From an uncultured Candidatus Saccharibacteria bacterium (GTDB lineage: Bacteria > Patescibacteriota > Minisyncoccia > UBA6257 > 1-14-0-10-44-23), in the NCBI GenBank assembly GCA_964394435.1, contig CAYMXN010000002.1, forward strand, positions 206,196 through 270,195: a stretch of 64,000 bases of DNA, in the 5' to 3' direction. How positions within the stretch are numbered: the stretch's first letter is position 1; every line of letters starts with the position of its first letter. Below are positions 18,369 through 63,999 of the stretch, piece after piece. A model generated the notes under the pieces. That model saw nothing but the letters and a program-made list of their open reading frames with translations. It ran no database searches and was not told the origin of the DNA. A program made the translations under genes and the position numbers.

Positions 18369-18434
18369 CTAGTATAGCGTATGAAAATAAAACTGCGCCA
18401 GCGTTTCGCAGGGAAACGGTGGCGCAGGGGGGGG

Positions 18435-18881
18435 CTAAGCTGCGGGGCGAACGGGGCGACGGGGGACGATGGGGACTACAGCGAGACGACAAATCGCTTC
18501 TTTGAGGGCGCTGTTCCCGTAGGCTCGGGCGTCGACTGTCCAGTTGACGGTCCTGGGGTCGGCGCAGAGACTACTGATCATTCGCGACTCGATGAGCGTG
18601 TATCCTTCGTATCCGACGAGTAGCACCGTAGGGATGTCGTGCTCGACATTCTGACGCTGCAGGGCGATGCCGTGGAGCCCCATGCTCCCTGGATCGTCTC
18701 TGTGGCGCCGGATGTCGGCGGCGATAATGATCCCGGTCGGGGACTTGATCGCCTGCACTTCATCGATGCACGTCGCGACTACCACTTCTGCCGCTGGGAG
18801 TATGCCCTTCAGCTCTACTCCTGCCTGCTGCGCGACCTTTTTGAGAGGTAGCGCAACGACGATCTTCGTGAGAATGCGCAA
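18435..18881 (-). CDS. hypothetical protein in a GC-rich islet (TTG start, strong SD)
   Basis: 148-aa ORF in a segment of about 60% GC. AAAGGAGGG lies 7 nt upstream of the TTG start. Followed by terminator hairpin CTGCGCCA..TGGCGCAG plus TTTTATTTT. Confidence 0.4.
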   Translation of the reverse strand: MRILTKIVVALPLKKVAQQAGVELKGILPAAEVVVATCIDEVQAIKSPTGIIIAADIRRHRDDPGSMGLHGIALQRQNVEHDIPTVLLVGYEGYTLIESRMISSLCADPRTVNWTVDARAYGNSALKEAICRLAVVPIVPRRPVRPAA

Positions 18882-18982
18882 GGCACCCTCCTTTATCGGC
18901 CTAGGGGATTACGCTAGGCACGCAGGAATAAGTAAATATCGTTTGAGTAGGCGTTGTCAAATCCACATCTTTGGGTTGAAAA

Positions 18983-19010
18983 TTGACAAATTTTAGTCTT
19001 TCTATATAAT
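18983..19010 (+). promoter_or_regulatory. sigma70-type promoter for rpmE (TTGACA-16-TATAAT)
   Basis: ttgaca at 18983-18988 and tataat at 19005-19010; ATG at 19022 leaves a 5' UTR of only about 5-6 nt. Confidence 0.55.
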
Positions 19011-19021
19011 CGAAAGCACTT

Positions 19022-19285
19022 ATGAAACAAGATATCCACCCTACATATTTCAATAAAGCGACTGCGACTTGTGGTTGCGGCAAGGTGTACACGCTCGGCT
19101 CTACGGTTGAGAAGATTAGCGTAGACATTTGCGCGAACTGCCACCCATTTTTTACCGGCAAAGAGAAGCTTATCGATACGGCTGGTAAGGTAGAGAAGTT
19201 TAAGGCTCGTCGTGCGACTGCGGCGGCTGCTCCAAAGAAAGAGAAAAAGGTGCGCGTTGCGAAAAACAAGAAAGACGTTAAGTAA
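19022..19285 (+). CDS. rpmE: 50S ribosomal protein L31 with Lys/Ala-rich C-terminal extension
   Basis: MKQDIHPTYF...CGCGKVYTLGSTV...CANCHPFFTGK has the L31 Zn-ribbon motifs. Confidence 0.85.
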   Translation: MKQDIHPTYFNKATATCGCGKVYTLGSTVEKISVDICANCHPFFTGKEKLIDTAGKVEKFKARRATAAAAPKKEKKVRVAKNKKDVK

Positions 19286-19286
19286 T

Positions 19287-19318
19287 AAAAATCCCGCCAG
19301 TTGGCGGGATTTTTATTT
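19287..19318 (+). terminator. rho-independent terminator after rpmE
   Basis: aaaaatcccgccagttggcgggatttttatttt. Confidence 0.7.
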
Positions 19319-19764
19319 TATTTCTTCTTATTAAATGGTTTGAAGTTCATTGTTTTTTGCATGCGAATCGCTGGGCCAGCAGGGTTGATCGCGTCTTCGA
19401 TACGCTGGCGATGCGTCGGGATAAGCGAAGCGGGGAGTTTGTCGAGCGGGAAAAATCCAACAGCCAGGGTTTCGTCTGATAGTTTTTGCCGTCCGCCAAT
19501 GATCTCGCCACGGAAGGCGAGGACGATATTATTGGCCTTGCGTTTTACATAGATGCCGGTGAGCTTTTGAATCTTTACCTTAAACCCGGTTTCCTCGTAG
19601 ATCTCACGGGCGGCACAGTGTTGTGGCCACTCTCCATATTGGAGTCCGCCACCAGGAATCGCCCACTTGCCATTATCTTCACGCTGAATTAGCAGTACCT
19701 TGCCTCTCTTGATAACAATCGTGAAGCAGCCAATGGTAAATTCCGGTTGTTTGCCGATATTCAT
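19318..19764 (-). CDS. NUDIX hydrolase
   Basis: Nudix box GGGLQYGEWPQHCAAREIYEETG; start taken at internal Met MNIGKQ (ATG rc at 19762-19764). Confidence 0.8.
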   Translation of the reverse strand: MNIGKQPEFTIGCFTIVIKRGKVLLIQREDNGKWAIPGGGLQYGEWPQHCAAREIYEETGFKVKIQKLTGIYVKRKANNIVLAFRGEIIGGRQKLSDETLAVGFFPLDKLPASLIPTHRQRIEDAINPAGPAIRMQKTMNFKPFNKKK

Positions 19765-19769
19765 AGCTT

Positions 19770-21383: not shown

Positions 21384-21413
21384 ACAAATTAAGTATAGCG
21401 CATTTCATGAGTG

Positions 21414-22472
21414 CTATTTCGTTTTGTACTGGATACGTGGTGCTTGCTTTGATGAGCGTGCGGTTGGATCTCCGTCTTTGCCGATACGAAAGGTGATAGC
21501 GATCAGTTCTTTTGGATTTCCAAGGGCCTTTTGCGTTTCTTTGTATGCTTGGCGGATTACTTCTTGGTGTTTTTGTGAGAGCAGATTATTTAACGCGCCA
21601 GCAGCTACGCCCTGATAGAAAAAGAGCGTCCCAGTCATAAGGTGGCAACTAAGTTTGTATGTGGTTGCGATAAGCCAGATGCGTTGCATAAGCTGTCCGG
21701 CCGCAAGAAACGCCTCGTCGGCATCAGGTATGGTGATCGCACCGATGGCTGGTGTTTTTGCGTATGTCTTTGCGTTGCTTGCGGCGATGCCTTTTGCTGC
21801 GCCGATGTGATTAAGTAGGTTCATTAATTTCCATGAACGAAATAGCTTGAGTGCTAGGCGTTGTGGTGCCGCAAGCTCCATAGTCATAAGATAGAGGCCA
21901 CTCTTTTTTTGTTTTTCTTCAGCTTCAGTCCAAACAATTTCGCTTGTGAAAAGTTTGTGCAGTTCTTGATTTTCGAGAGTGATTATTTCATTAACACTCG
22001 CTGTCCGAGCTAATTCTTTTATATCTTGTGCAGCTTCGGCGAAAAGGAGCTTGCAGGAGTCAAACGGTTGGGCGGCGCTTAATAATTCTTGTTTAATAGT
22101 GGGGCTTAGCGCTTCTGTTTTATATGGCTTTCGATTGGTAGTGCGGCTAAAAATCGCTTCGTAGAGGCGTGTTGGATGCGCTTCGGTTTTTATGAGGTTG
22201 ATTGTGGCGGTGATATTCTGATTTGTTTTGTCTGGGAAGAGCTTGATATTTGCTTGATATCCGAAATGTTCAGCAGCGATGCGTATATTTTCGATTAGTG
22301 CTCCATGGGCGAAGAGGGTGCCGCGATTGCGAAAGTTGAGGACCGGGTGGTCTTTCTCTGGTTCGGCGATAACGGTTATCGCATTTTCAGAAACTTCAAA
22401 TCGCCATGGCTGTGAGTTGCTCCCTGATGGCGCCTGGCAGCCAGCTTCGATAATTTTTTGGATATCATTCAT
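21414..22472 (-). CDS. nitroreductase-superfamily oxidoreductase, two-lobed (SagB/McbC-like)
   Basis: 352 aa; AGCQAPSGSNSQPWRF matches the nitroreductase FMN-binding N-terminal motif. Confidence 0.6.
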   Translation of the reverse strand: MNDIQKIIEAGCQAPSGSNSQPWRFEVSENAITVIAEPEKDHPVLNFRNRGTLFAHGALIENIRIAAEHFGYQANIKLFPDKTNQNITATINLIKTEAHPTRLYEAIFSRTTNRKPYKTEALSPTIKQELLSAAQPFDSCKLLFAEAAQDIKELARTASVNEIITLENQELHKLFTSEIVWTEAEEKQKKSGLYLMTMELAAPQRLALKLFRSWKLMNLLNHIGAAKGIAASNAKTYAKTPAIGAITIPDADEAFLAAGQLMQRIWLIATTYKLSCHLMTGTLFFYQGVAAGALNNLLSQKHQEVIRQAYKETQKALGNPKELIAITFRIGKDGDPTARSSKQAPRIQYKTK

Positions 22473-22487
22473 ATTGTTTAGTATACC

Positions 22488-22514
22488 AAAAACCGCCCAT
22501 TTGGGCGGTTTTTG
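22488..22514 (-). terminator. rho-independent terminator between the ThiF-like gene and the nitroreductase gene
   Basis: aaaaaccgcccatttgggcggttttt. Confidence 0.65.
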
Positions 22515-22522
22515 GTTGGTTG

Positions 22523-29771: not shown

Positions 29772-29831
29772 TAAAAATGGCCGAGACCGATGTGAGTCGG
29801 TTTCGGCCACCCCTTGGGAGGGGGAGGACGA

Positions 29832-29918
29832 CTAGTCGTCGTCCGGTCCGTCGTTCTTCTCGCCCGAACTTCCGTCGTTCTGGGCCGGCGGATCGCCACC
29901 GTAGAACTTGCGGTTCAT
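29832..29918 (-). CDS. 28-aa micro-ORF in a GC-rich islet with AAGGAAG SD
   Basis: Translates MNRKFYGGDPPAQNDGSSGEKNDGPDDD; SD 6 nt upstream; palindrome GGACGACTAGTCGTCGTCC at the stop; the ~110-bp GC-rich segment 29810-29920 is about 68% GC. Confidence 0.25.
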   Translation of the reverse strand: MNRKFYGGDPPAQNDGSSGEKNDGPDDD

Positions 29919-30005
29919 CGGATTGCTTCCTTGTTGTTGCGATTGCGCTCGCTAACTTTTGGCACGTTGCCGCAGTGAGCAGGAGCACTTTTATAATTAT
30001 CTAAC

Positions 30006-30587
30006 TTACCGGTTCTTGTCAATACGTGATTGACGTGCCAAGAAGGGAAGCACTCTTTTCTTTAGTCCTTCTCGAAACAGGGCGAAGCGACTTACATCGT
30101 GATATTTTCCTGCGTAGAATCGTGCTCCTCGGAATCGCCCTTCCTTTTTGAATCCGGCGCTAACCATCGTGTCGTGCGAGAGCTTGTTGTAGCCAAAGAC
30201 TTCGAAGTAGATCTTGTGAATAGGGAATGAGTCGAAGAGCCATCTGATAACGAGCGCTGTCGCGATTGCGCCATAGCCCTTTCGTTCATTTTCTTCATCG
30301 ATGAATGTGTTGATGAAGACATTCCCATTGGTTAGGTCGAGATTGAAAGAGAATATCGTTCCAATGGCTCGGTTGTCTCGTTTGCGGACAATTATGAATT
30401 GTGCGTGCCGCTGATTCGCAAATGCTTTTTTGATTTCGGCAGCAAACTCTTCTGGATTTACGGTATCTCGTCTCTGCGAAAGCAGCCTTAGCCAACGTTC
30501 GCTGTTGCGCCAATCTAGAAGCGTGGGATAGTCAGTTTCGTTGATTGGACGGAGGCCGACCGTTCTTGTTTCATGAACGAAGTTCAA
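30006..30587 (-). CDS. GNAT-family N-acetyltransferase (RimJ/RimL-like)
   Basis: GNAT motif A region KGYGAIATALVIRWLFDSFPIHKIYFEV. Confidence 0.75.
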   Translation of the reverse strand: MNFVHETRTVGLRPINETDYPTLLDWRNSERWLRLLSQRRDTVNPEEFAAEIKKAFANQRHAQFIIVRKRDNRAIGTIFSFNLDLTNGNVFINTFIDEENERKGYGAIATALVIRWLFDSFPIHKIYFEVFGYNKLSHDTMVSAGFKKEGRFRGARFYAGKYHDVSRFALFREGLKKRVLPFLARQSRIDKNR

Positions 30588-30691
30588 GGGATTCTCCTAT
30601 GATATGGGGGGTGATGTGTTCCGCCTTGATAGTACAACTATTTCTTGGGGTGTCAACAAAAATACCCGAACGGGTATTTTTGTTTGAGTTT

Positions 30692-31132: not shown

Positions 31133-31525
31133 TTAAGACAATTGCTTTAGGATTTCGTTGATGCGCGTTACGAGAAGGTCGAGATCGCCGCCTTTTTTAA
31201 AATAGTCGACAGCGCCAATCTGTTCAGAAAATCGTTTGTTGATGCCTGCGACCGCAGGGGAGGCGTCACCGAGGTTGGTTAGAAAGATAATCGGGATGTT
31301 TTTGGTTTGTTCGTTGGCGTGTAGGTCGGCAGTCGCTTCCATCCCATCTTTTTCGGGCATTTGTACGTCCATCAAGATTAAATCAGGCTTGATTTTCGTT
31401 GCTTTTTCAACAGCCATCGCGCCATTTGAGGCGGTCTGGACTGAAAATCCTTTGCTTTTGAGTTTTGCGCCAACGATATCGAGAAAGTCTGCGTCGTCGT
31501 CAGCGGTGAGAATAAGTTTAGCCAT
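31133..31525 (-). CDS. stand-alone response-regulator receiver (CheY-like), paralog of the adjacent gene
   Basis: LTADDD...DLILMDVQMP...FLTNL. Confidence 0.8.
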   Translation of the reverse strand: MAKLILTADDDADFLDIVGAKLKSKGFSVQTASNGAMAVEKATKIKPDLILMDVQMPEKDGMEATADLHANEQTKNIPIIFLTNLGDASPAVAGINKRFSEQIGAVDYFKKGGDLDLLVTRINEILKQLS

Positions 31526-31579
31526 ACTCCTTTACTTATAGAGTAGCATAGCATAATCTATTGAACTATAATTACCCAT

Positions 31580-32335
31580 ATGGTGGATGAATCAACAATC
31601 AATAAGTGTATTTTAGAAATTCGAGCGGGAGCTGGTGGAGACGAGGCGGCTATTTTTGCTGGAGATTTGGCGCGTATGTACCAACGCTATACCGCATCGA
31701 AAGGGTGGGGGTTTAAAATTTTTGATTATAACGAGACGGGGCAAAACGGATATAAGAGTTTTTTTGCGCAGGTTTCGGGTAGTGGTTGCTATCTTGCTCT
31801 GAAATTAGAGTCAGGCGTGCACCGCGTACAGCGTGTTCCAGCTACAGAGAAAGCTGGGCGCGTACATACTTCGACTGCGACGGTAGCGGTTTTGCCTGAA
31901 CTTGAAGCGAAAGAGATTGTGATTAGCCCAAATGATTTAGAGGTTACATTTTCTCGTGCCGGTGGTCCGGGTGGGCAAAACGTGAACAAAGTAGAGAGCG
32001 CGGTTCGTATTACGCACAAACCGACTGGGATTGTAGTCAGTTCACGCGCCGAGCGTGCGCAGGCGGCTAACCGTGAGGCGGCGATGTCGCTCTTGCGGGC
32101 GAAATTGTATGACTTGGAGCAGCAGCGTACGCAAGGACAGTTTGCGGCAGATCGTCGTGAGCTTGTTGGTACGGCTGACCGGAGTGAAAAGATTCGAACG
32201 TATAACTTTGCTGACGATCGCTTAACCGACCACCGCTTTGGTGTGAAGGTGCACGATATTGAAAGTATTTTAAACGGTGATTTGGATAAGTTGCTGAATA
32301 AGATTAAAAAATCTCAAGAGGGGGAGAAGAAGTAA
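31580..32335 (+). CDS. prfA: peptide chain release factor 1-like protein that lacks N-terminal domain 1
   Basis: PAT tripeptide anticodon motif ([15 protein letters not shown]); GGQ motif ([12 protein letters not shown]). Only 251 aa, against about 355 aa for typical RF1. Confidence 0.75.
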
Positions 32336-32399
32336 TATTCATAAATAAAAAGAAAAGGCCCACACGATCGGGGCCCTTTGATTTGCGGCGCACCTCCTC

Positions 32400-32633
32400 C
32401 TAGGGGTGCGCGTTATTTTGCTGGTTGTTGTTCTGCTTCTTCTTCGGGGCGACGGACTTCGCGAGTGACGTCAGGATGCTGGCAACCGTCTTGCGGACGA
32501 GGTTGATCGGCATCATGGCGAACACGGGCTTGAACTTCGCCTTCTCTCGAAGCGGGGTGAACAACATGTCCAACCCGAGCAGAATGATTTCGATGAGCGC
32601 GAACATCTGCAGGTAGTACTCAAACGTTGTCAT
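32400..32633 (-). CDS. 77-aa small membrane protein in a GC-rich islet (strong SD)
   Basis: CAGGAGGT lies about 9 nt upstream of the ATG; one or two TM helices then a Lys/Asn/Gln tail; terminator hairpin GGCCCCGATCGTGTGGGCC downstream. Confidence 0.4.
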   Translation of the reverse strand: MTTFEYYLQMFALIEIILLGLDMLFTPLREKAKFKPVFAMMPINLVRKTVASILTSLAKSVAPKKKQNNNQQNNAHP

Positions 32634-32746
32634 GGTCTGGTGACCTCCTGATGTATATTATATCACTAAAATATATAAAAGTCAATGAACTGATTTGGTT
32701 TATTTGGATACTAAAAACCCTCGTTACGCGAGGGTTTTTAGTATCT

Positions 32747-36407: not shown

Positions 36408-36436
36408 TTGACTTTTTACTTATTTTATGCTATACT
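36408..36436 (+). promoter_or_regulatory. sigma70-type promoter (TTGACT-17-TATACT) driving the GC-rich micro-ORF islet
   Basis: ttgact at 36408-36413 and tatact at 36431-36436; preceded by G7/G5 tracts. Confidence 0.5.
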
Positions 36437-36459
36437 TTTCTTTGTCAGTACCTGAAATT

Positions 36460-36489
36460 GCGACCCGTTCTACGGGCTCGCTGGGAGGA
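36460..36489 (+). repeat. leader element copy 1 (hairpin GCGACCCG-TTCTA-CGGGCTCGC followed by GGGAGGA SD)
   Basis: About 85% identical to copy 2; sits 8 nt upstream of the ATG at 36498. Confidence 0.7.
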
Positions 36490-36497
36490 GATGCATC

Positions 36498-36662
36498 ATG
36501 GACGATATCGATATCCTCGTGCTAGTGGTCCTCGCGGTTGCCGTCGTGGCAGCCGTGATCGGCCTCTTCGCGGGGGCTACGGTCTACTTTTTCGGCAGTT
36601 TGGGCGTATTGCTGGCATACGTCGGTGTGGCGTATCTGGCGTACGTCACGTACGGCCGGTGA
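36498..36662 (+). CDS. 54-aa hydrophobic micro-protein (two predicted TM helices)
   Basis: Translates MDDIDILVLVVLAVAVVAAVIGLFAGATVYFFGSLGVLLAYVGVAYLAYVTYGR; GGGAGGAG SD; high GC3. Confidence 0.45.
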   Translation: MDDIDILVLVVLAVAVVAAVIGLFAGATVYFFGSLGVLLAYVGVAYLAYVTYGR

Positions 36663-36674
36663 CTGGAGGACGAT

Positions 36675-36878
36675 ATGAAGAAGGACATTCGAGAAGAGGT
36701 CGAGCGCCGTGTGCGCCGCCTACTGACCAAGATGTGCAGCTGCCAGCGGGCAGGCTGCAACATGTTGCACGTGTGCGACACGGACAAGATCGTCCAGGCC
36801 GCTCTCGCGTGCGACGTGTGCGGGGACATGCGACCGAACAAAGAGGATGGCACATGCCCCGGGTGCGGGAGTGCCTGA
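36675..36878 (+). CDS. 67-aa Cys-rich (8 Cys) small protein, zinc-ribbon-like, with amphipathic N-terminal leader
   Basis: Translates MKKDIREEVERRVRRLLTKMCSCQRAGCNMLHVCDTDKIVQAALACDVCGDMRPNKEDGTCPGCGSA; SD GGAGGA 5 nt upstream. Confidence 0.5.
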   Translation: MKKDIREEVERRVRRLLTKMCSCQRAGCNMLHVCDTDKIVQAALACDVCGDMRPNKEDGTCPGCGSA

Positions 36879-36902
36879 CTTTAAGTGAAACTCTGGAAAA
36901 AT

Positions 36903-36932
36903 GAGACCCGTTTCACGGGCTCGCCGGGAGGA
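36903..36932 (+). repeat. leader element copy 2 (hairpin GAGACCCG-TTTCA-CGGGCTCGC plus GGGAGGA)
   Basis: Direct repeat of 36460-36489; 6 nt upstream of the ATG at 36938. Confidence 0.7.
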
Positions 36933-36937
36933 TTCCT

Positions 36938-37093
36938 ATGGACGGCAAGATCAGCGTGCGTCACGAGGTCATCTCGGTCATCATCGTCTTCGGTGCGATC
37001 CTGGCCGCCATCCTGGTGCCGGGCAAGAAGCTCGACCAGAAGGCGGCGGACGCGATGGCGAAGGTCAGCGCGACGCTCTTCGGAGGGCGCTGA
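36938..37093 (+). CDS. 51-aa hydrophobic micro-protein (single TM)
   Basis: Translates MDGKISVRHEVISVIIVFGAILAAILVPGKKLDQKAADAMAKVSATLFGGR; its stop overlaps the next ATG as TGATG. Confidence 0.45.
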   Translation: MDGKISVRHEVISVIIVFGAILAAILVPGKKLDQKAADAMAKVSATLFGGR

Positions 37094-37127
37094 TGGACGA
37101 AGACAGGACAGAGAGAAGGTTCGTTTG

Positions 37128-37223
37128 ATGGTGGGGGTCGCGATCGCGATTCTCGTCATCGCAGTGATTGTCGCTTGCCAAGTGCGAGCGGCAATCAGCC
37201 CGGAAGGCTTCGGCTTTCCGTAG
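37128..37223 (+). CDS. 31-aa hydrophobic micro-peptide, translationally coupled
   Basis: Translates MVGVAIAILVIAVIVACQVRAAISPEGFGFP; preceded by an 11-codon ORF MDEDRTERRFV (37093-37128) linked by TGATG overlaps. Confidence 0.35.
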   Translation: MVGVAIAILVIAVIVACQVRAAISPEGFGFP

Positions 37224-37259
37224 AGGCGCTTTGTGCAAACAGAGCGCCTTAATTTTTTA
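37224..37259 (+). terminator. rho-independent terminator closing the micro-ORF islet
   Basis: aggcgct-ttgtgcaaacag-agcgcct followed by taatttttt. Confidence 0.7.
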
Positions 37260-37823: not shown

Positions 37824-38007
37824 AGATAGGTATTTGCTAATGGCTTATAGCGTATAGGAAATAAGCGGAAATATCTACTTAATGTTATATTGACTTTATG
37901 TTTAAAAAATGCTATAAAATAAATCAGCAAGCCTAGGCATAGGCAAGCCCCTTAGCTGGCGGGTAGCCAGGAGTTTCCCGGCGATTAGTCGGGGAAGGGA
38001 TTTGAAG

Positions 38008-38601
38008 ATGAAGTTCGACGACCTGACGCACGGGCAGACCAAGGCACTTGTCACCAAGCTTGGTGGCGCGGATAAGGCCCTCGCCATTCTTCGTGGAGAG
38101 ATAGAGATGGTTGAAAAGCGTCTCACTCCGCCTCGTCCGCTTCGCCTTCTTCGTCCTACGGCGAAGTGTCGCTTCGCTGTTGAGGAGACTTTTTTTGGTA
38201 AGACGGCGGTACGGATTGACCATCGAGGCGATAGCTTCACGGCAGGGTTTAGATCTATTGTCGAGGAGCCTGTCCTCGAGGCGACTCTTGTCCCATTTGA
38301 TCTCAATCAAGCTGCATCTGACGGTGCGATTATTGCCGATTTGGGCGGTGAGGACCGTGCCGAGGTGGCGCTTTCCCAGGTTTGGAGACTCCTTGAGCGT
38401 CAGCCTAATGGCGAGGAGGGTGTTCTGCTCACTAGCGGGTACGCGAACATCTTTTACGTTCGTGACATTGCGGGGGCGTTGCGCGTCGTAACGGCCGTCT
38501 GGGTTGCCTTGAAGAACGGCTGGCAAGTGTACGCCAATTCTCTCCAGGGGCGTCCGCGCTTTTTGGACGGTGCCTGGCGTGTTTTCTCTTACAGCTCCTG
38601 A
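38008..38601 (+). CDS. hypothetical protein in a GC-rich single-gene islet (SD plus own terminator)
   Basis: About 58% GC; GGGGAAGGGA precedes the ATG; ORF about 197 aa; no recognisable motif. Confidence 0.45.
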   Translation: MKFDDLTHGQTKALVTKLGGADKALAILRGEIEMVEKRLTPPRPLRLLRPTAKCRFAVEETFFGKTAVRIDHRGDSFTAGFRSIVEEPVLEATLVPFDLNQAASDGAIIADLGGEDRAEVALSQVWRLLERQPNGEEGVLLTSGYANIFYVRDIAGALRVVTAVWVALKNGWQVYANSLQGRPRFLDGAWRVFSYSS

Positions 38602-38611
38602 TTCCTTGTAT

Positions 38612-38650
38612 CCTCGTGCGCGACTTGTCGCGCACGAGGATTTCTTTTTC
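38612..38650 (+). terminator. rho-independent terminator after the GC-rich gene
   Basis: cctcgtgcgcgac-ttgt-cgcgcacgagg followed by atttcttttt. Confidence 0.7.
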
Positions 38651-38664
38651 GATACTTACTTTAG

Positions 38665-39206: not shown

Positions 39207-40295
39207 TTATTCCTTTTTTAGGAGATACGCGGCGATTGCGGTGCTAATCGGTACCGCGAGAATGAGGGCGATGCTTCCAATGAGCGTTCGAACAATCTCT
39301 TCCACCATAAACTCGCTGCTTAACACCGTCCAAAGTGGGCGCGTGGCGATATTTGCCTTAAGTAGTAAGAGGAGTGATAACGAGCTTCCTGCGTACGCAA
39401 GAAAGAGTGTATTAACTAGTGAGGCGATATGTTCTCGGCCTACTGATAGTCCGCGGCGGTATAGTTCTTTGCGTGAGAGGGCGGGGTTTGCTTTTTGTAG
39501 TTCGTCGACAACTGCAGTTTGGGCGGTAGTGATGTCATCTAAAATACCAAGAGCTCCAATAATAATTCCTCCTAGCAGAAGTCCGCGAAGATCTAGCTTT
39601 CCAAAGGAGTTGATTTGTAAATAAAATGCAGTTTCTGATCCGAGTCCGAAGAGTTGCGTATATCGTATGGCGAGATGGGCGAAGAGTCCGGCAAGAGCGA
39701 GTGTTGTGATTGTACTAATAAGTGCGAGATAGGTACGTTTTTCAAATCCATGCGCGAGCAGTATCGAGACGATGGCGATTAATGCGCTGCTGGTAAGAAT
39801 TGTTGGTAGTGGAGCGGCTCCGGCAATTAAGCGGGGCATTAAGTAGGTGATAAGAATTGTAGCGCTGGCTATTAATCCAATGATTGCTCCGAGGCCTTTG
39901 CGTTTTCCGAGGAGTATGGCGAGTGTGAAAAAAATGCCGACTAAGAGGACGACTTGTGGTAGGCGGTAAAAATCTTCGAACGCGTATTGTTCGCCGTCAT
40001 ACGAGACGATAATTGTTTGTCCTAGTTGGGGTGTTTGTGTTTTGTCTTGCGCCAACCCTCCTTCGAAACGAATAGTTGTTGTTGCATTTTTATTTGGCCC
40101 GGATGTGACTACTGCTTCTATATCTCGGACAAACTGTTGTTGGCCGAGGATTGTTTCCGTTTTTAGTTCGCCAAGTCCACTTACTCGAGCTCGTGAGTAA
40201 GCGATGTTAGTTTGGGCGAGTGTTTGTGCGTGGGCATACGATACTCCAAAGTACCCAAGTATGCCTAAAAGTAGCGCGGCGATATATATACGCAT
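39207..40295 (-). CDS. polytopic membrane protein (YibE/F-like)
   Basis: Signal peptide, ~110-aa extracytoplasmic domain, then about 7 TM helices. Confidence 0.4.
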   Translation of the reverse strand: MRIYIAALLLGILGYFGVSYAHAQTLAQTNIAYSRARVSGLGELKTETILGQQQFVRDIEAVVTSGPNKNATTTIRFEGGLAQDKTQTPQLGQTIIVSYDGEQYAFEDFYRLPQVVLLVGIFFTLAILLGKRKGLGAIIGLIASATILITYLMPRLIAGAAPLPTILTSSALIAIVSILLAHGFEKRTYLALISTITTLALAGLFAHLAIRYTQLFGLGSETAFYLQINSFGKLDLRGLLLGGIIIGALGILDDITTAQTAVVDELQKANPALSRKELYRRGLSVGREHIASLVNTLFLAYAGSSLSLLLLLKANIATRPLWTVLSSEFMVEEIVRTLIGSIALILAVPISTAIAAYLLKKE

Positions 40296-40530
40296 ATCCT
40301 TACTTTAGCACATGCGTATTAGTGTCCGTGGTTGTTTTTCTGATGAACAAGGTAGCTGACCTGTTCTTGTATAAAGACGGAGAGAAAGCAGAGAACTACT
40401 GTACAAAAACCTAATTGATGTATTACTCGCCCCGCTTGTCGGTTGCGGGGCGGGTAATTAACTATGGAGTGTCGTGATGAAGCGACACGGGGTTTGCGCG
40501 ACCAGGTTGCGCAAGCCTTATAGAGATATT

Positions 40531-40554
40531 ATGCAACTTAGTTGCGATTGTCAA
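40531..40554. promoter_or_regulatory. palindromic operator-like motif ATGCAACTTAGTTGCGATTGTCAA (copy 1)
   Basis: Perfect inverted repeat GCAACT-t-AGTTGC; near-identical copy at 41939-41966. Confidence 0.5.
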
Positions 40555-40626
40555 TGCTGTATTTGTGAGCTACTTTTCCCTCATTATTTAAGTTATTGAA
40601 AATTATAAAACCGCACAACGGCGGTT

Positions 40627-41061: not shown

Positions 41062-41103
41062 AAATAAAGCGGCTAGGCAATCAGTATTGCCGAGCCGCTA
41101 GGG

Positions 41104-41916: not shown

Positions 41917-41938
41917 GAGTTCGTTCGTAAGAAAGTCT

Positions 41939-41966
41939 ATGCAACCTAGTTGCGTTTGTCAAATTG
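41939..41966. promoter_or_regulatory. palindromic operator-like motif TATGCAACCTAGTTGCGTTTGTCAAAT (copy 2) in the divergent zupT/iscS promoter region
   Basis: About 25 nt upstream of the ZIP gene start and about 40 nt upstream of iscS. Confidence 0.5.
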
Positions 41967-42003
41967 AACAGTTGGCTTTAGGATATAAGCAACTTCCTTA
42001 TAT

Positions 42004-44567: not shown

Positions 44568-44581
44568 AAAAGACCCACCTA

Positions 44582-45031
44582 TCAGCTTGCGGCTGATGCG
44601 GTGGGTCGGGGGAGTATGCCGATCGCTTCGAGAGCGTAGCGATGCGGCTTAAGGAGATCTTCCATCTCCTCAAGCTGCTTTTGCGAAAAAACGCCGACTT
44701 CTTCTCCTTCGTCACCCCGCTCTTTGAGGCCTTCGAGTGTGGCGACTTCGGCCGTGTAGAGGACGAAGGTGTGCTTTGTCCTCGGCTCGTTGTAGCTGAA
44801 GGTGAGCTGGAAGGGCGGGATGTTGATTCCCGTTTCCTCTAGTAGCTCGCGGGTCGCCGCGACATTGGGTAGCTCGTAGGGCTGGCTCTTGCCGCCCGGG
44901 AGCTTCCACAGGGGACGATTGAACTTCGGGTCGCGTACGAGCACGACCCCTTGAGGCGAGCGTACGAGTACGGCGACCGCGTAGTCGCTATACTGCATCT
45001 CGGCCTCATCTGAGCTGTCCTGCTTGCTCAC
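44582..45031 (-). CDS. NUDIX hydrolase encoded in a GC-rich segment
   Basis: Nudix box GGKSQPYELPNVAATRELLEETGI; about 58% GC; GTG start (ATG alternative 11 codons downstream). Confidence 0.7.
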   Translation of the reverse strand: MSKQDSSDEAEMQYSDYAVAVLVRSPQGVVLVRDPKFNRPLWKLPGGKSQPYELPNVAATRELLEETGINIPPFQLTFSYNEPRTKHTFVLYTAEVATLEGLKERGDEGEEVGVFSQKQLEEMEDLLKPHRYALEAIGILPRPTASAAS

Positions 45032-45087
45032 GATGTACTCCAGATGCGGGTTTTGGAACTTTTCTATAATAACTTAAATATATACTC

Positions 45088-45116
45088 TTGTCAAGGATTG
45101 ACGAAGCTGGTATACT
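45088..45116 (+). promoter_or_regulatory. sigma70-type promoter for clpB (TTGTCA-17-TATACT)
   Basis: ttgtca at 45088-45093 and tatact at 45111-45116; about 15-nt SD-less 5' UTR. Confidence 0.5.
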
Positions 45117-47851: not shown

Positions 47852-48534
47852 CGTTTCTGTTTGGAGCGCTTGTTCGCACGGTATATCTTAATCCTGCGCA
47901 AACTGGTCCGCTGGTAATCTTTTTGGTCGTAGCATTTTTGCTGTACGCCCAGCCGATTTTTCGTACATTTCGCCACCTTGGTTCACTCATTGTTTTGTGT
48001 GCGGTAAGTATCTTCGCTTCAGTTGTGTTCTCGGTTAATATTTCTCCGACGCTTGTGGCGCTGATTTTTGCCGTTTTGTTTTATTTACTTCTTGGTATTA
48101 AAACGATGCGATTAACTCGCCGTACCGAGTGGTATCTGTTGTTCCAGATTACGCTCTTTTATATTCTTTCTGTGCTGTTCTTTGCTTCTGACAAGGGAGA
48201 GTCGTTTGTCTATAAACTTATTGGGATGTTTTTCGTTTCCTGGTTTTTGCTGCGTGATTATTACCGGACTATTGATCGTCCACTTACCTTAGAGGTACGC
48301 ACTGTTTCTCTCGTACTCTCCGTTCTTATCGTGCAGGCGCTTTGGATGATTAGTATTTTGCCTTTTTCGTTTTTTGTTAGCGCGGGACTTATTTTGATGG
48401 TATTTTTTGTTCTGCAGGAGATTTCGCGGTTTTATTTGGCAAAACAACTGACGAGCAAAATGCTTTTCAGCTACGTATTCGCCTTACTCGTTGTATTTGG
48501 TGTTACGTTTGCACTTGTCCAGCTTCACTACTAA
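47852..48534 (+). CDS. polytopic membrane protein (start uncertain; track ORF begins at 47788 inside clpB)
   Basis: 6-7 TM helices; no motif recognised. Confidence 0.35.
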
Positions 48535-50426
48535 CGGGTAGTCCAGTCGATATCAGGGCGAAGTTGTTTGGCTACTGCCAGAAGTTTTTGGTATGCGGCA
48601 TCGTCGCCAAGTGTTTTGGCTGTTTTGAGTAATATGGCGATAAACTCGATGCGAGTTGGGGCTATTTCGAGCGCTTCCTTATACAGCGCTTGGTTGCGCT
48701 TCAGGTAGTCAGTTTGATTAAAGAGTATGCCTGCGCGTAGGTTAAGTCCGCCGTTGGTATATACATCTTTTAAGCCAGACATCTTAGAGCGGTTAGCATC
48801 AAACCACTGGTTAGCCATATCAACAACTGAACGAATTGCTTCGATCGAGATGTTTGGATTTGCCCGCGCAGTTCCTTCGATAATGTTGATGATGAAGCGG
48901 TTAAATGCGGCTACGGTTTCTTCTTGCCCGACTGGTGAGGGGAGGTTATATACGTGCTCAAATGCTTTGATGCCATCGTTTCCATTTGCTGAACGGTGGG
49001 CGTTTGCGAGGGCGAGATTTTTTTGGAATGGGAAGACGTCGGTAATGATAATACTTGTAATGAGTACGGTGGCTATCGCAAGTGTCGTGAGGAGTCCGGA
49101 TCCGGTTAGTTCGTAGTACTCTTCCGTCAGATCAACGGGTTGTCGATCGGTATTTATTACGCACACGATAAACGTATAGAGAATGATGTATACCGGCAGT
49201 ACGTCGAAGAGGAAAAATCCTTGCGTGAAGTAGGCGATTGGTAGGGCGAATAGGATTGATTTCCAGAGGTTGCGTGGATAGCGTTTTATCTCTTTGTAGT
49301 AAAAGAAAAATATCGCAAGGTAGGCGAAGAGCAGTGTTATACCTCCACTGATAAGATATTCGAGAAACACATTGTGGGTGCGGTCAAAGAATGATTCGAT
49401 GCCAAAGTGTTTCGGGTTGTAATACTTGTCGAATACGTATGGAAAATTTTCCGCACCCCAGCCTAGTAGTGGCCGTTCGATTACGCCAGCGACTGCTGAT
49501 CCCCACGTCCAAAGACGAGGTTGGATTTCTTTGAGTGCTCCTCCGATATTGAGAAACCGGTTTACGACGGGAATGTGTTGCCAAAAGCTCGCTTGGCTTG
49601 TTGCTACAAAGGTTATTCCGGCTATGCTGCAGGTAAGTAGTAAGCCAAAGGCGACAAGCCGTCCTTTACGTGTATGAGCAAACCAGATTTCGGCGATGAG
49701 TACGGTAAGTCCGGCGACCATTACGGCGAGGAGCGCTCCGCGCGTGCCGGTTTGGAGTAGTGCGAAGCTTTCAACTGCGAGTAGCGCACCCCAGAGCGTT
49801 TTTTGAATAGCAGTCTTAGATCGGCGCATCATATATATGATGAGTGCGATACTGATAATCAGATATCCTCCAAGATATGACGGGTTGCCGAGTGTTCCGG
49901 AGATACGCTTATCTGCAGCGATGATTTTGAGTTTGCCGGCGAGTTCTGGGTTTGGAAACTTATAAAAATATAGTTGAGCGAATCCGTAGACACATAAGAG
50001 TCCGCTTGTGATAATCGTCGCTTTAATTGTTCGGATGATTGTTTTTGGATCGGTAAATAGGATAGAACTTAGCAGGAAAAAGAGTGCGTAATGCATAATT
50101 TGAAATGCTCCTTCGCCTCGTTCGAAGTTTGACCAAAATGCTTGAGTTGGATTCTGTGAAATGAGCGCGGTGCTGACGGCGATGAGCGCAAAGAGTATTA
50201 CGCTTATGTTAATCGGGCGGCGAAGCTGTGTTTTAATAGTCTGAAGCAGCGCGCTTCGATTATTAGCGAGTAGTATGTGAGCAAGGAGAAAGGCGAGGGC
50301 GAGCTCGATAAGTATGCGGAAGATGATTGCTTTTCCGGCGATAAAGGGGAAGTAGAGTCCGTTGATTAATATGAGCGGCGTAAAAATTGCCGCAAGTGTA
50401 CAGAAGCGAGCGATTTTAATAAGCAT
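48531..50426 (-). CDS. O-antigen ligase (Wzy_C)-like polytopic membrane protein with C-terminal TPR-like soluble domain
   Basis: 631 aa; more than 10 TM helices with a large extracytoplasmic loop; helical C-terminal ~150 aa. Confidence 0.5.
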   Translation of the reverse strand: MLIKIARFCTLAAIFTPLILINGLYFPFIAGKAIIFRILIELALAFLLAHILLANNRSALLQTIKTQLRRPINISVILFALIAVSTALISQNPTQAFWSNFERGEGAFQIMHYALFFLLSSILFTDPKTIIRTIKATIITSGLLCVYGFAQLYFYKFPNPELAGKLKIIAADKRISGTLGNPSYLGGYLIISIALIIYMMRRSKTAIQKTLWGALLAVESFALLQTGTRGALLAVMVAGLTVLIAEIWFAHTRKGRLVAFGLLLTCSIAGITFVATSQASFWQHIPVVNRFLNIGGALKEIQPRLWTWGSAVAGVIERPLLGWGAENFPYVFDKYYNPKHFGIESFFDRTHNVFLEYLISGGITLLFAYLAIFFFYYKEIKRYPRNLWKSILFALPIAYFTQGFFLFDVLPVYIILYTFIVCVINTDRQPVDLTEEYYELTGSGLLTTLAIATVLITSIIITDVFPFQKNLALANAHRSANGNDGIKAFEHVYNLPSPVGQEETVAAFNRFIINIIEGTARANPNISIEAIRSVVDMANQWFDANRSKMSGLKDVYTNGGLNLRAGILFNQTDYLKRNQALYKEALEIAPTRIEFIAILLKTAKTLGDDAAYQKLLAVAKQLRPDIDWTTR

Positions 50427-61058: not shown

Positions 61059-61100
61059 GACAGAGGGCGCCGGTAGTTTCTGGGTGATATACTTATAGTA

Positions 61101-61793
61101 ATGCTGCATCCGTTTCTTATTACTGGACTCGGACTTTTGCCAAGCTTAATTTGGCTGATTTTCTATTTACAGGAAGACCGGAAACATCCCGAGCCGCTGC
61201 GTATGATTATATACGCCTTTGTCTTGGGTGGGCTGATGACTTTTTTTGCGCTTGTCTTACAGATTTTGTTGCGTTTGGTGCTGTATGAAAATGGCGTGCC
61301 CGCACATAGCGAGATAGAGCTCGCGGTGTTTTCAGTGGTTGAAGAGGTGTTGAAGTTTTTAGCCGTATTTATCTTTATTCGCAAGCGACAGGAGTTTGAT
61401 GAGCCACTGGATGCGATGATTTATATGATTATCGTCTCCTTGGGATTTGCAGCCGTGGAAAATATCGCCTCGCTTGGACAGTATTCGAATGGCGTGAGTG
61501 GGCTTATCGGGATTACTACGATGGAGGCGGTGGCGTTACGCTTTTTTGGCGCGACCGTGCTGCATAGCGTTTCTTCAGGATTGCTTGGGTATCATTGGGC
61601 TATGGGTATTGAGCGACGCAGGGCGGTTGGATGGTATATCGCCGTTGGTCTTGGGGTAGCTATCTCTCTGCACACGCTTTTCAACTATCTGATTATTAAG
61701 ACGGGGCCGGGGAGCTGGGCGATCGCGTTTACGGTCTTTATCGCATTTTTCCTTTTAGCTGATTTTGAGACGCTTAAGGCGACTGATGATTAA
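61101..61793 (+). CDS. PrsW-family intramembrane metalloprotease-like protein
   Basis: Polytopic; EEVLKF and FAAVEN motifs characteristic of the PrsW (CPBP-related) family. Confidence 0.55.
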   Translation: MLHPFLITGLGLLPSLIWLIFYLQEDRKHPEPLRMIIYAFVLGGLMTFFALVLQILLRLVLYENGVPAHSEIELAVFSVVEEVLKFLAVFIFIRKRQEFDEPLDAMIYMIIVSLGFAAVENIASLGQYSNGVSGLIGITTMEAVALRFFGATVLHSVSSGLLGYHWAMGIERRRAVGWYIAVGLGVAISLHTLFNYLIIKTGPGSWAIAFTVFIAFFLLADFETLKATDD

Positions 61794-61816
61794 TCTTTGA
61801 TGGTATACTTAACGTT

Positions 61817-62296
61817 ATGGATAATGACACGAAGAAATTTTTTGAAGAGTTAGCTTCTGGTGCTCATTTGAAGGCGAAAAAGGAGTCACGAGCCGAAGAA
61901 GAGCATAAAGAGGTTATTGAGCATACCGATGAGCCCTCGCTCGAGGGGAGTATTGCTGATGAGCGCGAGGGGCAGCTTACGATTGATGTGTATCAACGCC
62001 CGGATGCGATTGTGATTGAGTCTCCGATCGCGGGAGTGCGCAGTGATGACTTAGAAATTACGATTACCAGTGAGTCGGTGACGATTCGGGGTAAGCGGGA
62101 GCGGGAAGGGGCGATTAGTGATGAGGATTACTTTTATCAGGAGTGTTATTGGGGAAGGTTTTCCCGTTCGGTCATCTTGCCGCAGGAAATCGACCCGGAT
62201 AGCTCGGAAGCGAGCATTAAAAACGGGGTTTTGACCCTGGTGATGCCTAAAGTAAACAAGGCGAAGCAGAAAAAGCTTAAGGTAAAGATAGATTAG
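61817..62296 (+). CDS. small heat-shock protein (Hsp20/alpha-crystallin)
   Basis: alpha-crystallin domain DVYQRPDAIVIESPIAGVRSDDLEITI...GRFSRSVILP...NGVLTLVMPK. Confidence 0.8.
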   Translation: MDNDTKKFFEELASGAHLKAKKESRAEEEHKEVIEHTDEPSLEGSIADEREGQLTIDVYQRPDAIVIESPIAGVRSDDLEITITSESVTIRGKREREGAISDEDYFYQECYWGRFSRSVILPQEIDPDSSEASIKNGVLTLVMPKVNKAKQKKLKVKID

Positions 62297-62302
62297 TGGT
62301 GA

Positions 62303-62335
62303 AAACGCCCGCCAAATGGCGGGCGTTTGATTTTA
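62303..62335 (+). terminator. rho-independent terminator after hsp20
   Basis: aaaacgcccgccaaatggcgggcgtttgatttt. Confidence 0.7.
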
Positions 62336-62485
62336 GCTTAAAAAGCACCCTAGGATAGCCTAAAAACCTAGGTTTTAAGCGGTTCCTTGACGTTTTCTAT
62401 TGACAATTGTCTAATTATATGATAGGATAGAGCTACTAGCAGTAAGTCCCCGTGTATGTGAGGGGATTTTTTGTTAGACAAACCT

Positions 62486-62995
62486 ATGAAAATAAACAAC
62501 CTTTTAATCAGTCTTTCAGCGGCGATTAAGGCGAATTATAAGCCATTAACGGCTCTTATTCTCCTTTTAGTGGCTATCTCTGTGCAAATGGTTTCTGCGG
62601 CTCGCGAAAGCCAGTTTGCAGACAGTGAAGAGCTTCATGATGCGGTTACGCTTACTGCCGAGACCTCACTCGCTCCTAAACAGGAGGTGGTGAAGATCCG
62701 CGCAACGGCGTATAACGCTGATGCTGCGCAGACTGACAGTACGCCAGATATTATGGCGAGTGGTAAGAAGGTCTATCCTGGTGCGATCGCGTGTCCACGT
62801 CGTTACCCATTTGGTACGAAAGTAACGATTAATGGTAAGACGTATACGTGTGAGGACCGTATGAATCTTCGCTTCGATGCTTCCTTTGGAAACTCGAAGG
62901 ATGAGCGCTTTGATATCTTGATGGCTACCCGCAAAGAGGCTATCAACTGGGGTATCCGCCATGTTGATGCGACCATCACTATCTACGAGTCATAA
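62486..62995 (+). CDS. 3D-domain (MltA-like) cell-wall-binding protein
   Basis: ATAY..D..PD...G........P.GTKV.I....Y...DR arrangement of conserved Asp residues; start set at ATG 62486 (the track TTG start at 62471 lies in a U-tract). Confidence 0.6.
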   Translation: MKINNLLISLSAAIKANYKPLTALILLLVAISVQMVSAARESQFADSEELHDAVTLTAETSLAPKQEVVKIRATAYNADAAQTDSTPDIMASGKKVYPGAIACPRRYPFGTKVTINGKTYTCEDRMNLRFDASFGNSKDERFDILMATRKEAINWGIRHVDATITIYES

Positions 62996-63031
62996 TGAAA
63001 TTAAAACACCCTCTAACGAGGGTGTTTTAAT

Positions 63032-63511
63032 TTAGATGTTGGTAAATGCCTTTTTAAGAACAGCGTGCGTGAGGGGAAAGGTGACGAGAGTGTTTTTTGG
63101 ATTCTTGGTGGCAGTAGTTGCTAGGTGTTTGAGATCGTCCGGGTAGAGGAGTTCGATTGAGGCGGTTTCGCGTCGTGGTTTGATGAGGGTTAAGATGTTG
63201 TGCGGAACGGTTAGGAGGTGGGCGTGGAAGGTGCGGCCCGCGGTTTCGATGCGGGCTATCTCGTGTACATTTTTAATGTATCGTTTGATATGTTTAGCTG
63301 CGTGTTCGCCAAGGTGTAATTTAATCGCGCGCTCGAGAGCTTGATTTATTGTTTCTCCTTTTTTGACGTTCGCGTTGGCGCTGAGTTGAAGGACGCCGGC
63401 AAAGCGGCTTGGGCGTAAGTGTTTGTACGTTCCGCGTTTGTGTAAGATAGCGGCGATGCCTTTGCTGGGAATATCGGTAAGAATAAGGAGTCCGACGGAG
63501 AGTTTAACCAT
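63032..63511 (-). CDS. hypothetical protein, possibly degenerate NUDIX fold
   Basis: KKGETINQALERAIKLHLGE loosely resembles GX5EX7REUXEEXGU; weak. Confidence 0.3.
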   Translation of the reverse strand: MVKLSVGLLILTDIPSKGIAAILHKRGTYKHLRPSRFAGVLQLSANANVKKGETINQALERAIKLHLGEHAAKHIKRYIKNVHEIARIETAGRTFHAHLLTVPHNILTLIKPRRETASIELLYPDDLKHLATTATKNPKNTLVTFPLTHAVLKKAFTNI

Positions 63512-63576
63512 AGATATAGTGTAGCAAATAAAAAGCCCGCGCTACATCTTCTGTGATGTGCGCGGGCGGGGGACGG

Positions 63577-63999
63577 TTAGCGCTGGCTCCAAGGGGCTTC
63601 AAACGCCTGGCGGAGCTTATTGAAGAACTGGTTGTTGCTGATGTCGGCGATGAACTTCGCGCGACTGAGCACGATCCACCTCATCCAGAGCGCGATGACC
63701 AGGCAGATCGCTTCGTCTTCGGGGGCTTGGCGTCCGGAGAAGCCGACGAGTATCTGATTCGAGCAGCGAATCGCTCCCTGGTATCGCTCGAGCTGATCGT
63801 TGCGACTCTGGAACGACGACCAGTGGTCGGGGAAGCTGGCGAGGCGGCGTGGTTTCTCTTCGGCAAGCGCTCGGCAGCGCTTGGTCTTGCTCGGATCGGC
63901 GAGCTCTCCGATTTGTGCGCACTCAGCGGGCAAGTCCGGGAAAAGGACGAAGAGGTAACCACCTTTGCGTGTCTTGTCGGGGCTAAGTTCGGTCGCCAT
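63577..63999 (-). CDS. hypothetical protein in a GC-rich terminal islet
   Basis: About 62% GC; 140-aa ORF with ATG at the window edge; terminator hairpin GCCCGCGC...GCGCGGGC at 63532-63575; several overlapping alternative frames. Confidence 0.35.
   Translation of the reverse strand: MATELSPDKTRKGGYLFVLFPDLPAECAQIGELADPSKTKRCRALAEEKPRRLASFPDHWSSFQSRNDQLERYQGAIRCSNQILVGFSGRQAPEDEAICLVIALWMRWIVLSRAKFIADISNNQFFNKLRQAFEAPWSQR

Follow-up and report, generated by a model that had tools for sequence, protein, structure and literature searches.

Genomes of Patescibacteria are thought to be small, streamlined and rather static, and the concept of the phage 'moron' is reportedly that of Hendrix and Juhala. 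A moron comprises one or more genes with their own promoter and terminator, lying between genes that are adjacent in relatives and differing in composition from its neighbours (PMC4378225). Units of this appearance were found in a 64,000-nucleotide stretch of the genome of an uncultured Candidatus Saccharibacteria bacterium (assembly GCA_964394435.1, contig CAYMXN010000002.1, positions 206,196 to 270,195), hereafter the window, by which the whole stretch is meant. Seven short GC-rich islets, delimited in a first-pass annotation of this DNA, were examined over ~46 kb of the window. They are probably horizontally acquired, autonomous, moron-like mini-cassettes in intergenic slots of a core chromosome of the Patescibacteria, or candidate phyla radiation (CPR).

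Like morons, cassettes A, C, D, E and F and an extra unit in the sister contig L173 have their own promoter and terminator; the extra units of L173 and of a second sister contig, L082, lie between genes or terminators that adjoin in the window; the composition of the islets departs from that of the remaining DNA (GC 0.55–0.61 versus 0.466; GC at third codon positions, GC3, 0.78 versus 0.48); and the mechanism of acquisition is obscure in both. Unlike morons, the cassettes are located in a core chromosome, near genes for 16S rRNA, L31, FtsK, ClpC and the S13-S11-S4-RpoA-L17 cluster, have no phage homologues beyond a generic NUDIX match, are GC-richer than their host, and carry translation signals that mismatch the host ribosome. 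With genomic islands they share atypical GC and codon usage, accessory cargo and a patchy distribution, but they are only ~0.25–0.85 kb long and densely placed (seven in ~46 kb), lack a tRNA neighbour, an integrase (in a non-exhaustive scan) or flanking direct repeats, and are GC-rich where foreign DNA is usually AT-rich. Integron cassettes are likewise small, modular, single-ORF (open reading frame) units able to stack in tandem, whereas the islets bring their own promoters and terminators and have neither attC-like sites nor an integrase. The cassettes are a variant of known foreign gene cassettes or morons.

Islet composition and cassette anatomy

In window order, the GC contents of the seven segments were 0.607, 0.596, 0.554, 0.593, 0.561, 0.588 and 0.603, against 0.466 for the remainder of the window, and each value was reached by only 0.06–5% of same-length stretches. 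The islets are therefore compositional outliers, as the first-pass annotation had held, although their true range is 55–61% GC and not the 58–62% that it gave. Non-overlapping 300-nt segments showed a standard deviation in GC of 0.045, versus a binomial expectation of 0.029. The high GC3 claimed for islet ORFs was borne out, with a mean of 0.77–0.78 (range 0.59–0.92) against 0.48 (standard deviation 0.06) in 59 native ORFs (Mann–Whitney p ~7e-6 to 7e-7). GC at first codon positions (GC1) was also raised, to 0.62 versus 0.54 in native ORFs, and the islet products were rich in Gly, Ala, Arg and Pro (GARP fraction 0.31 versus 0.25, p 4e-4) and poor in Phe, Tyr, Met, Ile, Asn and Lys, an enrichment in GARP residues as expected of proteins from higher-GC genomes. 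The islets were said to lie often between convergent genes; this holds for only three or four of the seven.

Islets wholly inside the window are complete expression units of ~0.25–0.85 kb, each with a sigma-70 promoter, a leader bearing a Shine–Dalgarno (SD) motif, one to four ORFs and a terminator. Promoters, located by sequence reading and consensus scans, are near consensus and lie 20–90 nt 5' of the start codon. Leaders are GC-rich, usually open with a hairpin, and carry a GGAGG-type tract 5–10 nt ahead of the ATG or other start codon. Cassettes A, C, D, E and F are bounded by consensus promoters and hairpin/T-tract terminators, and because the cassettes are placed beside native terminators or stop codons they neither interrupt nor depend on native transcription units. 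SD strength was calculated as the duplex energy of the -22 to -4 region with a canonical anti-SD. The features are as follows.

18381..18960, minus strand: cassette A; -35 box TTGACA at 18955-18960, -10 box TATTTA at 18933-18938 (16-nt spacing)
18886-18894, minus strand: SD AAAGGAGGG (duplex energy -12.1) in the cassette A leader, which is ~45 nt long and has a hairpin
18435-18881, minus strand: cassette A ORF, 148 amino acids (aa), TTG start, GC3 0.72
~18385-18430, minus strand: cassette A terminator
29775..30022, minus strand: cassette B (tentative); promoter-like TTGACA-18-AATTAT at 30022-29993, SD-like AAGGAAG
29832-29918, minus strand: cassette B ORF, 28 codons, GC3 0.83; hairpin and T-tract at ~29777-29812
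32345..32685, minus strand: cassette C; promoter TTGACT-17-TATAAT with extended -10 at 32685-32657, short leader
Cassette C SD, minus strand: CAGGAGGT, duplex energy -11.0
32400-32633, minus strand: cassette C ORF, 77 aa, hydrophobic N-terminal stretch, GC3 0.87
32388-32411, then ~32349-32381: 3' end of cassette C, a GC hairpin followed by a bidirectional terminator common to the release-factor gene
36408..37258, plus strand: cassette D, a tandem array; promoter TTGACT-17-TATACT at 36408-36436
36455-36489, plus strand: cassette D leader 1, hairpin and GGGAGGA
36498-36662, plus strand: cassette D ORF 1, 54 aa, strongly hydrophobic, likely membrane-spanning
36675-36878, plus strand: cassette D ORF 2, 67 aa, Cys-rich
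36898-36932, plus strand: cassette D leader 2, a repeat of the 35-nt leader 1 at 86% identity
36938-37093, plus strand: cassette D ORF 3, 51 aa, hydrophobic
37128-37223, plus strand: cassette D ORF 4, 31 aa, hydrophobic
37223-37250 and T-tract, plus strand: cassette D terminator
37890..38651, plus strand: cassette E; promoter TTGACT at 37890-37895 and TATAAA at 37913-37918
Cassette E leader, plus strand: structured, ~85 nt, 3' end GGGGAAGGGA, fold z -2.2
38008-38601, plus strand: cassette E ORF, 197 aa, GC3 0.59; terminator at 38610-38641
44568..45094, minus strand: cassette F; promoter TTGACA-17-TATTAT at 45094-45066, leader with CTGGAG
44582-45031, minus strand: cassette F ORF, a 149-aa NUDIX hydrolase, GC3 0.72
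~44570-44612, minus strand: cassette F terminator hairpin, common to the convergent HtrA gene
63530..64000, minus strand: cassette G, cut by the window end, with promoter and SD beyond it
63577-63999, minus strand: cassette G ORF, the C-terminal 140 aa of a ~169-aa protein, GC3 0.76; terminator at ~63531-63575

The 28-codon ORF of cassette B is tentative: it had no comparative support, and no Rfam match was obtained there at E<=1. Hairpins followed by T-tracts were found at islet ends, as had been reported. The accompanying claim that native genes lack terminators was wrong, as strong intrinsic terminators, often bidirectional, are present at native genes too (17767-17794, 19284-19317, 22485-22516, 30655-30684, 32706-46 and 40605-30), so that terminators do not distinguish the islets.

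The compositional jumps themselves, and nothing else, would favour an artefact, that is, assembly chimeras or GC-rich structured RNA genes taken for ORFs, and the probability of this is practically nil. Four independent sequencing runs yielded contigs that span islet/native junctions and are 100% identical; together with the orthologous islets of related species, these contigs rule out the chimeras that the first-pass annotation had allowed for. As to RNA genes behind the GC peaks, ARAGORN found no tRNA gene and Rfam at the gathering threshold returned only the 16S rRNA, while E-value scans of the islets with Rfam gave only a sub-threshold, BjrC68-like hairpin/terminator tail. Ratios of non-synonymous to synonymous substitution rates (dN/dS) were 0.17 for the cassette A protein, 0.34 for cassette E and 0.15 for the NUDIX protein, compared with 0.01–0.09 for native neighbours. 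As judged from these ratios, all below 1, the retained cassette ORFs are shown to be real genes under purifying selection; they evolve 3–10 times faster than native genes at non-synonymous sites.

A mobile micro-gene family had also been envisaged. A single dedicated family of this kind, whether of integron-like cassettes, of miniature transposons or of toxins or peptides, would move by recombination sites of its own. The leader repeated within cassette D, the tandem stacking at one hotspot of cassette D and the extra L082 unit, and the recurrence of small hydrophobic peptides as cargo are in its favour. However, no repeat, inverted repeat or attC-like site common to different islets was found, no target-site duplication was visible at two mapped junctions, the islets, in contrast to integron cassettes, have promoters of their own, the window proteins scanned included no integrase or transposase (a scan that was not exhaustive), and the cargo proteins are mutually unrelated. 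A mobile family of this kind is very improbable given such heterogeneous cargo and the lack of common recombination sites, even though small membrane peptides do recur. The cassette D leader motif was detected at no other locus, occurring only in D and its identical copy in L089. The junctions with native DNA coincide with T-tracts of terminators or with stop codons.

Start signals and the host 16S rRNA

Duplex energies of -5 kcal/mol or lower were obtained for 8/8 testable islet ORFs versus 8/59 native ORFs, and of -9 kcal/mol or lower for 5/8 versus 0/59 (Fisher p 6e-6), with a native median of ~-0.7 kcal/mol. GGAGG-type motifs thus precede all eight testable islet ORFs and are strong in five, in agreement with the strong SDs first ascribed to them. 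The ribosome of the host can be assessed from a single gene, the only one for 16S rRNA in the window, which is located outside the islets.

15754..17293, minus strand: 16S rRNA gene of the host genome (Rfam RF00177, 1424.6 bits, full model 1-1533)

In other bacteria the equivalent 3' end of 16S rRNA reads GGAUCACCUCCUU. Direct reading of the tail gave ...GGAUCAAUUAAACU, with AUUAA in place of CCUCC, and since this tail has no CCUCC the anti-SD core is missing from the host 16S rRNA. Combined with the absence of strong SDs from native genes (0/59), this supports the earlier description of the host as SD-free. Loss of the anti-SD is documented in subgroups of Parcubacteria and other CPR lineages (PMC9297842, PMC10783764). 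The window has both traits of such ribosomes, a 16S tail without CCUCC and native genes without SD, as described for subgroups of Parcubacteria, Wolfebacteria, Campbellbacteria and further lineages (Tsurumaki et al. 2022, PMC9297842; PMC10783764); it differs in its minority of SD-led, GC-rich cassettes, which the sections of these papers drawn on here do not describe.

Native genes start in another manner. In many, a TATAAT or TATACT box ends 5–8 nt before the ATG (e.g. 21414-22472, 48531-50426, 61101-61793 and 61817-62296), T occupies position -1 in 37/50, and many others overlap the gene before them or directly adjoin it; native mRNAs therefore look mostly leaderless or translationally coupled. 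A new SD pairing with the altered 16S tail was rejected, as native upstream regions gave -1.79 versus -2.17±0.47 kcal/mol for 300 shuffled tails, no better than shuffled upstream regions.

The translation puzzle raised in the first-pass annotation is hence real: the 16S rRNA of the window has no anti-SD while the cassettes carry SDs. With no pairing possible between these SDs and this 16S rRNA, translation of the leadered cassette mRNAs would start independently of the SD, and initiation is probably weak; alternatively, the purine tract may have another role, for instance in mRNA stabilisation. The tract is nonetheless conserved. The SD tract AAAGGAGGGUGCC is identical in four taxa, the orthologue of the NUDIX cassette keeps GGAG at equal distance, and the cassette E leader is kept in L082, with higher conservation than the beginning of the ORF that it precedes. 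Conserved yet unpairable, the leaders would be either relics or elements with an anti-SD-independent role. That they function without an anti-SD, through GGAGG stabilising the mRNA 5' end or an alternative ribosome contact, or that a second, anti-SD-bearing rRNA provides a specialised ribosome pool for imported genes, is doubtful; if either were true, the lineage would offer a natural system separating SD function from 16S pairing. The translation mismatch could also act as a brake that keeps foreign genes at a low dose.

Conservation, turnover and cargo

Relatives found through ClpC (genome contigs) or FtsK (metagenome contigs) were only 55–57% identical and too distant for synteny. Sister contigs L082/L083 and L173–L176 were recovered by exact-protein look-ups. 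L082/L083 share ~80% nucleotide identity with the window and carry cassettes E and F at the same slots, with GC3 (window/L082) of 0.59/0.56 for E and 0.72/0.73 for F; synonymous divergence (dS) between window and L082/L083 was 0.46 for E and 0.98 for F, native genes giving 0.66–2.0. In L173–L176, ~82–87% identical, a cassette A orthologue lies between the L31 and DoxX genes (GC3 0.72/0.71). Given these same-slot orthologues across dS ~0.5–1.0, islets A, E and F are not recent but older than the species splits. The cassettes had been described as recently acquired and foreign; the foreign-derived look stands, by GC3, GC1, GARP content and signal architecture, but recency does not hold for 18435-18881, 38008-38601 and 44582-45031, for which syntenic orthologues of similar GC, named beforehand as evidence against recent acquisition, were found.

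By comparison with these relatives, as had been recommended, whole units were seen to differ among sister genomes. L173 has an extra 690-bp cassette, comprising TTGACA-17-TATAAT, the SD CCAAGGAGG, a gene for a 177-aa protein with a hydrophobic N-terminus and a terminator, between the stop codon of a histidine-kinase gene and the start codon of a NUDIX gene, which are 5 nt apart in the window. In L082 the 3' end and terminator of cassette D are kept, and an extra unit of ~480 bp with three hydrophobic small ORFs stands between that terminator and an exonuclease gene; L175 carries another GC-rich segment 3' of L31. Alignment of these contigs shows that whole cassettes have been gained or lost between sister species.

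Substitutions in cassette A on the L173 and L174 branches, polarised with the window as outgroup, comprised 19 GC>AT and 11 AT>GC changes, and from the per-site rates GC would reach equilibrium at 0.47, which is also the value of native DNA, consistent with slow drift towards host GC. Over ~330 nt (estimated by eye), L173–L176 do not differ; this segment takes in the 5' half of L31 and, from cassette A, the promoter, the leader and the initial ~75 nt of the ORF. Flanks diverging by 4–11% around an identical segment suggest recent recombination between these lineages.

The cargo is mixed, including a NUDIX hydrolase, an orphan protein of the family targeted by diversity-generating retroelements (DGRs), small hydrophobic peptides, a Cys-rich peptide and unannotated proteins, all mutually unrelated. 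Searches for defence systems and named families with PADLOC and NCBIfam returned only NUDIX, and a phage origin was rejected, as PHROG gave no significant matches except generic NUDIX ones. In IMG/VR neither three of the islet proteins nor a degenerate motif from the 197-aa family had relatives, and in INPHARED there was no match for the 197-aa protein, the sole islet protein searched there. Several of the small peptides are probably membrane-spanning, on inspection of their hydrophobic segments.

The 197-aa protein of cassette E belongs to an unnamed family with 27 detected members. Variable proteins of DGRs in CPR bacteria have a C-type-lectin fold (PMC8144416, PMC11661182). The AlphaFold2 (AF2) model of the cassette E protein, with a predicted local distance difference test score (pLDDT) of 85, may weakly resemble a C-type-lectin or formylglycine-generating-enzyme (FGE)-like fold. 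Its homologues in L087, L183 and L184 are DGR variable proteins with a C-terminal variable region (VR), a nearby template repeat (TR) and a reverse transcriptase (RT) gene alongside. VR/TR mismatches fall at TR adenines in all cases within a 112-nt repeat in L087 (P0005), in 9/9 cases in L183 (P0016) and in 11/16 in L184 (P0017). These DGR loci (L087:1213-3777, L183:6001-8520 and L184:6001-8466), on related Patescibacteria contigs, are complete or near-complete; an Avd gene is present in that of L183 and an rve-type integrase adjoins that of L087. Cassette E itself differs: blastn/tblastn of the 64-kb window, L082 and L084 detected neither an RT nor a TR-like repeat. In L084 the homologue forms an SD-led islet (GC3 0.86) at a different slot in an SD-poor genome. 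Conjugative plasmids of Bradyrhizobium carry members of the family as well (39% identity). On one of them (NZ_CP094524.1:131014-132276; L182) the homologue starts 3 nt after a gene for an NYN-domain (RNase-like) protein, near tra genes, and the two may form a two-gene module.

Cassette F encodes a NUDIX hydrolase (PF00293, 4e-17, 62.9 bits versus a cut-off of 21.1) with an intact Nudix box, read from the translation as GKSQPYELPNVAATRELLEETGI (consensus GX5EX7REUXEEXGU). Its closest placeable relatives beyond the genus, at 40–44% identity, are in other CPR-type genomes and look native, without SD; two matches, slightly closer (48%), are on unplaceable contigs of ~520 bp, and weak tblastn matches on Streptomyces plasmids showed 40–45% identity over 37–53% of the protein. 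For the 148-aa protein of cassette A, no homologue beyond the genus was found among 5.8 billion proteins and no match in Pfam, PHROG, PADLOC or NCBIfam; its AF2 model (pLDDT 45) was unusable. The cassette G family is uncharacterised and large, with 630 representative clusters and homologues of ~160–169 aa, the best match being 169 aa long and 86% identical, with the query aligning from ~residue 30; the protein had no Pfam or PDB match. The tail of cassette D (37192-37257, hairpin and terminator) matches the whole Rfam model BjrC68, a small RNA of Bradyrhizobiaceae, at 32.2 bits against a threshold of 39. Next to a cassette E with Bradyrhizobium plasmid homologues, this may be coincidence or a hint of the donor. 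A Bradyrhizobium link for cassette D was rejected, since no DNA or protein match was obtained in the plasmids.

Origin of the cassettes and their surroundings

Taken as foreign mini-cassettes, the islets would have come from higher-GC genomes with leadered, SD-dependent initiation, as their GC3, GC1 and GARP content suggest. Whole units with their own promoter, leader and terminator would have been inserted between native genes and would since have drifted slowly towards host composition. Several observations weigh against this interpretation. No donor was found, nor any homologue above ~50% identity beyond the genus or any phage match, and there is no sign of an insertion mechanism, a target duplication or a recombinase. 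The promoters are AT-rich and host-like, which is unusual for DNA taken from a high-GC genome. Across dS ~0.5–1.0, GC3 has not changed in three syntenic cassettes, so that passive decay would need a very GC-rich start, or else GC is actively maintained, and the sample of polarised substitutions is small (p ~0.2 against 1:1). At the three DGR loci found in other genomes, GC is higher in the target gene than in the accompanying RT/Avd genes, which hints that high GC may belong to the DGR-target family and not mark a donor.

These points bear on the main rival explanation, a long-standing class of resident accessory genes whose high GC3 is kept by selection (mRNA structure or stability, codon-level control) or by GC-biased gene conversion through frequent recombination between strains. 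It would account for syntenic orthologues that hold their GC3 across dS ~1, for a DGR-target family that is GC-richer than its flanks in 6/6 genomes, including loci with host-like RT/Avd GC, for leaders and promoters better conserved than coding sequences, and for the mosaic recombination among L173–L176. By contrast, the 19:11 substitutions in cassette A match the 19.1:10.9 expected under decay to host GC, the shifts in GC1 and GARP touch protein composition beyond silent sites, sister genomes differ by whole cassettes, and the SD motifs have no evident purpose on this 16S rRNA. A resident class is accordingly possible but unlikely.

Direct transfer to an epibiont from a high-GC host such as an actinobacterium, with host DNA taken up, integrated and retained, had been put forward as one source. 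The GC-rich, SD-bearing and GARP-rich islets and the weak NUDIX matches to Streptomyces plasmids are compatible with it. Nevertheless, the closest placeable NUDIX relatives beyond the genus (43–44%) are in CPR-type contigs, the 197-aa family resides in CPR DGR loci and alphaproteobacterial plasmids, homologues of the 148-aa protein are confined to the genus, the cassettes' own promoters are AT-rich (TTGACA-17-TATAAT), and three islets are older than the species splits. With no match found above ~50% identity outside the genus, we consider transfer from such a host improbable. Higher-GC relatives within the clade were likewise rejected as SD-using donors: the genomes nearest by FtsK were SD-poor across 36–60% GC, by a method that is crude in high-GC genomes.

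The mini-cassettes, if foreign as favoured here, are tiny, autonomous units of foreign composition, densely placed in this window and turning over between sister species, with cargo (hydrophobic peptides, a DGR-type binding protein, a NUDIX enzyme) plausibly tied to host interaction. SD leaders under apparent constraint without an anti-SD amount to a natural test of the role of the SD without its partner, and also of whether mismatched signals for translation restrict horizontal gene transfer or buffer it. If this were true genome-wide, GC3 combined with SD would be a simple marker of the accessory genome in such uncultured lineages.

The window as a whole (GC 47.3%) contains core genes of a Patescibacteria/CPR-type bacterium, including those for L31, FtsK, phosphoglucomutase, ClpC, HtrA, the S13-S11-S4-RpoA-L17 cluster, S9, TsaD and LeuRS, as well as type IV pilin-like genes. 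The best ClpC matches among species-representative genomes, at only 57% identity, were a 'Patescibacteria group bacterium' and a 'Candidatus Saccharibacteria' metagenome-assembled genome. No match to 23S (large-subunit) rRNA was found after the 16S rRNA gene or elsewhere in the 64 kb; as no 23S rRNA follows the 16S rRNA in the window, the rRNA genes appear unlinked. A response-regulator gene (15109-15699) is directly downstream of the 16S rRNA gene, and ARAGORN detected no tRNA genes in the 64-kb window.

The release-factor ORF at 31580-32335 is short (251 aa), and its PCRF domain match starts at model position 97, so it seems to be without N-terminal domain 1. Upstream of it, a plus-strand ORF (31236-31541) with no Pfam match overlaps a response-regulator gene on the opposite strand. 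A 2.7-kb block at 39222-41971, with YibE/F-like, Fur and ZIP zinc-transporter genes, is missing from the otherwise syntenic L082/L083; this accessory indel has no SD motifs, and its GC is uneven (Fur 0.35, ZIP 0.54). Two tandem pilin-like genes (13688-14263 and 14380-14946) have the N_methyl motif, a GC of 0.54 and a GC3 of ~0.60, and because their upstream regions are native in style, without SD, this type IV pilin-like pair falls outside the islet class.

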